NCBI GenBank assembly: GCA_012295275.1
Contig: CM022672.1
Coordinates: 16,740,001-16,804,000 of the forward strand
Length of the DNA stretch: 64,000 nt
Direction: 5' to 3'
Origin: Chrysomallon squamiferum
Taxonomy: Eukaryota > Animalia > Mollusca
The notes under the pieces were generated by a model. That model was not told the DNA's origin. It made no database searches and was given only the letters and a program-made list of their open reading frames with translations. Below are positions 24,301 to 26,192 of this stretch, one piece after another (position 1 is the stretch's first letter; every line of letters starts with the position of its first letter). Both the position numbers and the translations under genes were made by a program.

Positions 24301-26192
24301 TTTAATATTAAGCTCTTCTTTCAGACTGATTGTCATTATATTGCTGTTATTATTATTATTTATTTATTTATTTATTTAGAGAATATGCACCACCGTGAAA
24401 AACGTTTCCCTGGATGGATTATACCTGTCGTGGTTTTTATTGTTTGCGTTATAATTTGCAGAAGTAAGAAATATTAGAGAGGTTTTTTCTTGTTTGTTTT
24501 TTGGGTATTTTTTTTTTTTTTTTTTCATTTAATGAGTAATGAAAGGATATCATAAAATTATAAAGTAATTTTCATTTATTCAGTTTAAATAATAATAATT
24601 GATGATGATGATAATGTATCTATTCAAACTTATTTTTATTTAAGGCTTACCTCAACATTATTCATTATTGCTATTAAAACTTCAGCAGAGGCTTCAATTT
24701 AGAAAGTAATGTCTATTTTTAGAACAGAAATTAACATGCTTTACAAACAGTTCGTATAATTATGCATTTAATATGTAATTCGTCTCATTTAAAAATTAAT
24801 TTCTGTATCCGTTTTAGATTAGAAATTAGAACGTTTTATACATAATAATCCTATAAACATTTTCAAATTATCTTTACGTTAAGTTTAATATAGAATACAA
24901 ACTCATTACATTTTACAAATAATAATACATAAAATTTACAAATCACTGTTTTATCATAAATAACTTTTCCGTAGAGGAACCAGAATACGATCCACCACGT
25001 TTTACAAAATGTGAGTCTCCAGGGGCTTTATTCTACGCACCCAAGGGTGAAAGTGCGGCTGTTGTAAAGTGGCAAGAACCAAAGTATGAAGCTGGCTCTG
25101 AGAGAATTTCTTCGTAAGAAATATTTGAAATAAAAATTCTAATATAATGTAATGAAAAGTATAAAGCTGAATACCACAACAATACAACACAATACACTAC
25201 AATACAATACAACACAATGTAAAATAATATCATATATCATATCATAGATGATATATGATATGATATAACGTAACGTAACTCAACGCAACGTAATGTAATA
25301 TAATATATGATAATATATGATATAATATAATAATACAACGTAAAGTTATAATAGTGCAATGGAAACTAGAACAATATACGTATGGGTCATTCCGTGTCAA
25401 ATCACCCAATGGGTTAAACCCGACCATCTCAGATTTTTATCAAACTTGATATACTTGGTACGACTGGGATCCCACAGCACCAAATATGAAATTTTAGCCC
25501 AATCGGACCAGTGGTGTGGGAGATATGGCCCACCGAATTTTGTAGGCCTACATGTATGCATACATTTCACATAAATTTGAGAGAACTAGGTGTTTCTGAT
25601 GCTTAACCTTCTCACCATCTGTTTCAAATGCTCACTGTATCCTTCATTCCCGGATATATTCTACTGTTCTCGTCACTTTCATAAAACTGGACTATTTCCT
25701 CCTTCAATTCATTTGACAGAACTTTCCCTTGTTTCTTATCAATTGCTTATTAATTTTCTTGTTTTTAAATCCCTGTTAATTATTATTGTCTAAACCAAAC
25801 TAAGCCATTGCTTAATTAAATGGACCAGAAATATTGAAATCAGTTTTTCTTAGATCTTTAAGCTTTAGAAGGAATTATTCTTTCATTATATTTTATTTTC
25901 TTATTACTGTTTGTTTTTAAAAGCTATATTCAGTTTTTATAAGTGATTTTTTGTTTTTCTTCCAGGATTATTCCTACTCTTGTTAATGTACAGTATTTTA
26001 TTATTGTTAGTTATTAGTTTATTTTTATTTTATTCAAATTGCAACTTAATTTTTTAAGGTTTTATAAGAGAATTACTCTGTTCATCTTGGTTAATTGATA
26101 AATAATTGTTATTTATTGTTAGAAAGTTGTAGAAATATCTGAGAGAGGGAAGTTGGAGAGTTAAATCTATAGGATAGGTGTATAATTTTAGC

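Follow-up and report, generated by a model that had tools for sequence, protein, structure and literature searches.

The window analysed here, a 64,000-nucleotide stretch of Chrysomallon squamiferum DNA (contig CM022672.1), is AT-rich, intron-rich animal DNA that holds two apparently head-to-head genes, gene B on the plus strand and its distant paralog A on the minus strand, each with a small exon encoding a basic cleavage site and a peptide, here called the tip. Gene B extends over approximately 22931-44490, with about 27 coding exons and about 1530 codons. Its closest protein is from the vent snail Gigantopelta (71% identity across 286 stalk columns), and in tblastn it is collinear with Gigantopelta P0002 along its entire length. 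The predicted product is a HYR/sushi/SEA-like type I membrane protein of molluscs, and the exon at 24380-24463, as read from its sequence and that of its homologues, supplies a peptide cassette of variable sequence that follows a furin-type site near the outer tip of this long protein.

Architecture of gene B and its tip exon

From the N-terminus, the product of gene B consists of a signal-like exon, a six-cysteine prodomain, the tip exon, a HYR domain, two sushi domains, a second HYR and two further sushi domains, followed by a SEA-like module with a basic site, two ephrin-receptor-like repeats, a LamG-like domain (LamG was scored on homologues, some at or under the Pfam cut-off) and two EGF domains, and then by TSP1, a sushi-like domain, a second SEA-like module, an ephrin-receptor-like repeat, a transmembrane (TM) helix and a tail. 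The corresponding features are as follows.

22931-23023, plus strand: first coding exon, signal-peptide-like; homologues are hydrophobic at the same N-terminal place
23846-24020, plus strand: six-cysteine prodomain, a small beta fold that is weakly sushi-like (AlphaFold model; best VIA match CD93)
24380-24463, plus strand: tip exon, phase 1-1, with REKR at 24394-24405 and a hydrophobic tip ending in CxxxC at 24406-24459; slot shared by homologues
24975-27194, plus strand: HYR1 (exons 24975-25113 and 27067-27194), predicted to form an immunoglobulin (Ig)-like beta sandwich right behind the tip (HYR match in Pfam for the second exon; homologue model)
27460-29764, plus strand: two sushi domains, HYR2, two sushi domains (Pfam), with a +1 frameshift near 28825 in the exon of HYR2 (28714-28966)
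31665-32383, plus strand: first SEA-like module with a basic furin-type site, on two exons (alignment; named by analogy with the SEA domain of SVEP1, PMC13722417)
within 33731-41675, plus strand: ephrin-receptor-like repeats, LamG-like domain, two EGF domains, TSP1 and sushi-like domain (Pfam on exons and homologues; collinear with P0002)
within 33731-41675, plus strand: second SEA-like module with a basic site, then an ephrin-receptor-like repeat (Pfam; collinear with P0002)
42665-42761, plus strand: true TM exon (best 19-residue Kyte-Doolittle value 3.24; basic residues after it; TM at this place in homologues)
43962-44490, plus strand: probable cytoplasmic tail exons, stop at 44490 (short motif in common with the P0002 tail; boundaries approximate)

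The tip exon is 84 nucleotides long, is bounded by the acceptor ...tttatttag and the donor gtaaga, and is read, split codons included, as (E)[27 protein letters not shown](K), in frame between the six-cysteine exon and the exons of HYR1. Furin-type site and tip together form the peptide [24 protein letters not shown], in which the hydrophobic 18-residue tip stands right behind the site. Sequence, splice sites and frame thus bear out the first-pass annotation, which had described a dedicated phase-1 exon encoding a furin site and a hydrophobic segment; its placement of this exon between a prodomain and a long HYR/sushi stalk that ends in a true TM also holds. The six frames of the window contain 46 R-x-[KR]-R sites, and only one of them, that of gene B, is followed by a hydrophobic 15-mer, so the arrangement is not a product of chance. 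In the closest homologues of gene B the same slot is occupied. Run X5, represented here by one contig with intron cover at a depth of 20, differs at 24453-24454 and changes CVIIC to CVIFC, which is nearer the family pattern.

The best Kyte-Doolittle values of the tip and the true TM are 3.25 vs 3.57 over 15 residues and 2.37 vs 3.24 over 19 residues. A segment of 18 residues with this hydrophobicity could be an ordinary membrane-spanning helix, that is, a stop-transfer or signal-anchor segment whose positive-inside flank is the basic site. However, a signal-like segment and a cysteine prodomain lie upstream, and downstream come domains rich in disulfides and a TM with basic residues behind it, so both flanks of the tip look extracellular, and homologous tips can be as short as 14-15 residues or arginine-rich. 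We therefore consider an ordinary helix quite improbable, in agreement with the first-pass annotation, which had set a stop-transfer role aside. The same TM-like values would suit a second anchor in cis, in which the cleaved tip enters its own membrane or vesicles and the protein becomes a double-anchored loop or tether in the manner of tetherin. This, too, is improbable, as it leaves the cationic and hypervariable tips described below unexplained, and in the protein pairs whose tips were compared, conservation is higher in the true TM than in the tip.

Three minor features accompany the 5' part of gene B. A probable 5' exon lies at 22813-22886, where an upstream ATG reads into a stop in the next exon; a 96-base unit is present three times (98% matched) at 23190-23475, inside the first coding intron; and an intronic element with inverted ends at 25380-26880 looks, by eye, like a DNA transposon remnant.

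Tip classes and divergence across the family

A profile of the SEA-like module, run against 1.84 billion representatives, recovered 469 proteins with E<=0.001, and the best 150 of the 469 were taken. With 84 short fragments dropped, 66 homologues were examined (65 of at least 500 amino acids, plus P0027), among which P0005 is a seed and P0107 and P0111 model the same locus; 29 are N-terminally truncated, leaving 37 readable N-termini, to which tip classes were assigned by eye. Conservation of the furin-plus-tip module in relatives, a point raised by the first-pass annotation, is now documented in gastropods and bivalves, with an [RK]-x-[KR]-R site right before the tip in 26 of the 37. Sixteen of these 26 tips are hydrophobic and end in C-x3-C (one in C-x4-C), several being of glycine-zipper type; six are arginine/lysine-rich, three are short and aromatic, and one is of another kind. 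Across homologues, tip length ranges from a few to approximately 40 residues, and the tip most like that of gene B, by eye, is that of Babylonia P0063.

The gastropod and bivalve sources include Gigantopelta, Haliotis, Littorina, Babylonia, Nucella, Crepidula, Crassostrea, Mizuhopecten, Dreissena, Mactra, Potamilus, Sinanodonta, Solemya and Pinctada. Outside the molluscs, Diadema, a sea urchin, has a polyarginine start, and Branchiostoma has an amphipathic segment. The W-led polyarginine stretch of the sea-urchin proteins P0110, P0220 and P0221 follows the signal peptide directly, so signal peptidase alone would expose the tip. Full-length open reading frames bearing tips occur on Logan contigs of 4.7-7.2 kilobases (kb), which are most simply spliced transcripts.

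Two opposite features characterize the tips. Their start is conserved: in 22 of 26 tips an aromatic residue is among the first three behind the site, compared with 3 of 48 similar stalk sites in the same proteins. Their sequence otherwise diverges. We compared 14 close pairs, three of which are near-identical and uninformative, and in 9 of the 11 informative pairs tip identity (29-82%) is lower than that of at least 99% of stalk windows of the same length. In the TM, which served as a control of equal hydrophobicity, close pairs are 68-100% identical. In a stalk tree of 47 rows, built by a quick method and with support to be taken with care, cationic tips need at least five changes on the starred branches, and one hydrophobic and one cationic tip are sisters at 95.

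These two features also bear on the idea that the tip is a loosely constrained spacer or oligomerisation knot, devoid of membrane activity, in which only CxxxC and the cleavage site matter. Such a knot would account for the poor conservation of the tip and for its absence in 5 of the 37 readable homologues, but would explain neither the aromatic-first bias nor the extreme hydrophobic or cationic composition, and we regard it as scarcely probable.

Predicted structure and possible roles of the tip

AlphaFold was run on the prodomain, tip and HYR1 of Babylonia P0063 with 28 sequences (predicted template modelling score, pTM, 0.54). The prodomain and the HYR are confident, the latter forming a beta sandwich with a predicted local distance difference test score (pLDDT) of 96-98; the tip has a pLDDT of 50-56, with a single short helix over CxxxC and the rest poorly ordered. 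An ordinary folded-domain strand, the outcome against which the first-pass annotation had cautioned, is thus not what this homologue model predicts. The single-chain model contains no confident packing of the tip on the prodomain, although such low confidence does not disprove masking. HYR1 in the homologue model matches SraP/Ig-like adhesin, PKD and cadherin-like domains (best Z 8.7). The prodomain of gene B is modelled as a small beta domain (pLDDT 82.8) whose best VIA match, the sushi-like domain of CD93 (Z 5.3, root-mean-square deviation 2.3, 49 aligned), is weak and under the tool's distinctive level; its cysteine and GxW pattern is seen, with no Pfam match.

Other database comparisons were largely negative. 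Foldseek against the PDB returned nothing at E<=0.001 for the P0063 model or the prodomain model, searching the PDB by sequence with the exons of prodomain and tip yielded chance-level rows only, and the protein atlas gave no usable match for P0001 38-150. In a viral library, the 50 matches listed comprised Ig-like domains and no fusion protein, a weak absence. Rows for the F proteins of respiratory syncytial virus and human metapneumovirus against the prodomain (Z 3.2-3.6) were judged background, and a PRIMA1 match (E 0.84, 1/28 members) was attributed to chance. Glycine-zipper matches of the tips were sub-threshold (E 0.023 and 0.4, one of 28 members each).

The first-pass annotation had likened the module to a viral fusion peptide and proposed a tether, a fusogen or an immune receptor. 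Fusion proteins depend on a hydrophobic peptide that is conserved and on helices whose folding back draws the membranes together. Gene B resembles class I viral fusion proteins in its furin-type site, its predicted G/F/W-rich hydrophobic new N-terminus and its C-terminal TM, and some tips of the family are long Ala/Gly/Val-rich helices. However, the tip is followed at once by the Ig-like HYR, and between it and the TM lie approximately 1400 residues of bead-like beta repeats. In six homologues, a crude heptad scan found no heptad helix adjoining the tip, the best windows lying in SEA-like helices or the leader, and the family appears to lack heptad repeats next to either tip or TM. Moreover, the tip is not conserved, being arginine-rich in 6 of the 26 furin-tipped homologues and the most divergent segment of the ectodomain in 9 of 11 pairs. 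A cell-cell fusogen with a class I-type fusion peptide is therefore very improbable, and the gene B product belongs neither to the class I fusion proteins nor to the big defensins. Within the earlier proposal, it is the tether or the immune receptor that fits best, and the fusogen finds no support; a surface-binding tip under protease control suits the parts better than a fusion machine does.

Big defensins are nevertheless the closest precedent, sharing the order of signal peptide, propeptide, RXKR and hydrophobic N-terminal segment. Oyster big defensins have RXKR before the hydrophobic domain (PMC3182236), and a second report describes hydrophobic interaction with bacteria, this domain driving bacterial capture without permeabilisation (PMC6805989). 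Gene B differs in that a HYR follows the tip in place of a six-cysteine beta-defensin domain, in that the tip sits on a 1400-residue membrane stalk, and in the lack of a sequence match.

An affinity for lipid or anionic surfaces is common to peptides with an aromatic start, whether hydrophobic, glycine-zipper, amphipathic or arginine-rich, and together these kinds make up the repertoire of antimicrobial peptides (AMPs). Temporins and brevinins, piscidins and glycine-zipper bacteriocins are released after dibasic sites, some with a terminal two-cysteine motif. The tips share the composition of such linear AMPs, be it hydrophobic, glycine-zipper, amphipathic-cationic or arginine-rich, but remain joined to a large membrane protein. 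Because the tip classes have this affinity in common and the tip changes fast, we favour a surface-binding recognition tip: a furin-released, membrane-gripping, diversifying AMP-like peptide on a sheddable stalk that binds foreign surfaces, e.g., those of microbes, a reading to which we assign a probability of roughly 45%. As a plausible mechanism, furin would cut in the secretory pathway and free the prodomain, and the new aromatic N-terminus would partition into lipid or an anionic surface, through insertion for hydrophobic tips and through charge for arginine-rich ones, in the manner of AMPs. CxxxC could close a short helix or link neighbouring chains. The bead-like stalk of approximately 1400 residues would keep the target at a distance and might be shed at the basic sites of the two SEA-like modules, and tip diversity would reflect changing targets in immune or symbiont recognition. 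All of this, from cleavage and topology to masking, insertion and biological role, is our inference. It is possible but doubtful that all of these elements combine in an expanded mollusc family of cell-surface harpoons, with a furin-released, swappable and positively selected AMP-like tip on a sheddable stalk anchoring itself in microbial membranes, and hence in a receptor that recognises through a membrane-active peptide, not a folded binding domain.

Classical cadherins have a prodomain, a basic site and an aromatic N-terminal residue before an Ig-like domain, and the same order in gene B raises a different possibility, namely protease-activated adhesion or self-assembly, in which the freed aromatic N-terminus pairs with tips or HYRs on other cells or matrix and tip variation gives self/non-self specificity. 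The conserved aromatic character of the first residues, the cadherin/PKD-like fold predicted for the adjoining HYR and the potential of CxxxC to join chains are consistent with this cadherin-like logic. The family differs from cadherins in that its tips run to 14-40 residues and contain CxxxC or polyarginine where cadherins have a short, conserved strand with Trp, and in that the HYR is not a cadherin repeat by sequence; a tip of a few to 40 residues is also unlike a fixed swapped strand, and polyarginine tips would repel each other and better suit anionic foreign or matrix surfaces. Two reports are in line with adhesion: hydrophobic domains of big defensins drive assembly, not lysis (PMC6805989), and SVEP1-labelled proteins, not tied to the tip family, are reported in shell matrices (PMC6368272). 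On balance, adhesion is a serious but unlikely alternative to the surface-binding recognition tip.

Several observations weigh against the recognition tip that we favour. The furin-plus-tip arrangement is missing in 11 of the 37 readable homologues: five have no tip, two have a hydrophobic tip without a consensus site, two have an amphipathic segment without a site, and two have a cationic stretch directly behind the signal peptide. Oyster proteins have a hydrophobic tip with no cysteine prodomain and mostly no adjacent site. One of two Dreissena models of one locus omits the tip exon in frame, both of these models missing exons. Two of the 11 close pairs lack excess tip divergence, the close pairs come from four sequence groups and are non-independent, and the divergence was measured by protein identity, for which relaxed constraint may account. 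The tips have no significant Pfam or PDB family match, and their likeness to AMPs is one of composition. Finally, both genes of the window are lesioned as assembled, gene B by the frameshift and paralog A by a stop in its tip.

Many homologues carry the SVEP1 name in databases. SVEP1 has SEA, VWA, pentraxin and a furin site (PMC13722417). The gene B family resembles SVEP1/Polydom in its HYR, sushi, ephrin-receptor-like, LamG/pentraxin-like and EGF domains and in a SEA-like module with a furin site. It differs in having TSP1 and a TM, the latter also in homologues, whereas SVEP1 is secreted, in its N-terminal prodomain-furin-tip module, and in the lack of VWA in the window exons scanned, in P0001 and in five further homologues. 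Because VWA is lacking and a TM is present, the predicted scaffold is SVEP1-like but not a member of SVEP1. In the open literature, subscription journals being largely outside its scope, no description of the prodomain-furin-tip module was found, and the Crepidula homologue could not be linked to the shell proteome of Crepidula (PMC9365450). A protein labelled SVEP1 is up 22.9-fold in Vibrio-exposed mussel gill (PMC7772429) and one is down in virus-infected oyster gill cells (bioRxiv 10.64898/2026.05.15.723513), in both cases by label only and not tied to the tip family.

Many mollusc genes are filed as 'SVEP1-like' and treated as matrix proteins, a group that takes in this membrane-anchored tip family without VWA and with a putatively cleavable, fast-changing tip. 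If the tip binds microbes, the family would be a type of innate or symbiont receptor that has been overlooked in farmed and vent molluscs, and would offer a natural library of easily synthesised and tested candidates for membrane-active peptides; if it mediates adhesion, the family would be a candidate self-recognition system. Either reading argues against naming the module a fusogen.

Lesions, paralog A and neighbouring genes

The HYR2 exon (28714-28966) has no open frame. Its tblastn alignment moves from frame 3 to frame 1 at the +1 frameshift near 28825, so gene B as assembled would end before the TM; if the frameshift is real, the copy in the window may be non-functional. Contigs of three RNA runs on 24300-25140 numbered zero, which does not prove absence of the exon from transcripts, and four RNA runs of one study, which share 20-30% of sampled words with a downstream stretch, were counted as no evidence. 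In run X5, the HYR1 exon (24967-25082) is covered up to 255-fold, compared with 20 around it (up to 12x), and variant letters are present. Because this cover lies so far above the surroundings, it suggests further near-identical copies elsewhere in the genome.

Paralog A runs opposite to gene B, from a candidate signal exon at 17603 to the left end of the window, where it exits; the candidate start codons of the two genes are approximately 5.3 kb apart (17541-22931). Its features are the following.

17541-17603, minus strand: candidate signal-peptide exon, proposed from hydrophobicity and phase
6469-6664, minus strand: cysteine-rich prodomain exon (sequence)
5831-5962, minus strand: tip exon with a basic site and an aromatic-led tip with C-x4-C; in-frame TAG at 5871-5873

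The module is present in paralog A as the first-pass annotation had described it, including the stop in the tip. With the candidate signal exon, the gene would have a first intron of 11 kb. In the stalk tree, gene B groups with two Gigantopelta proteins and paralog A belongs to a different clade, with no row more than 35% identical to it, indicating that the two are distant paralogs. The TAG follows a T run and could double as a cryptic splice acceptor (5871-5876, minus strand). Assembly error, allelic difference and pseudogene status are each possible sources of the lesions in the two genes.

Two further regions, both on the minus strand, lie to the right of gene B. More coding-looking exons occur at 55500-62700, with no Pfam match in the three scanned. 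A multi-exon coiled-coil gene at 47000-52300 has a weak match to the central region of ODAD1 (E 2e-4, below the cut-off) and probably encodes a ciliary dynein docking protein.
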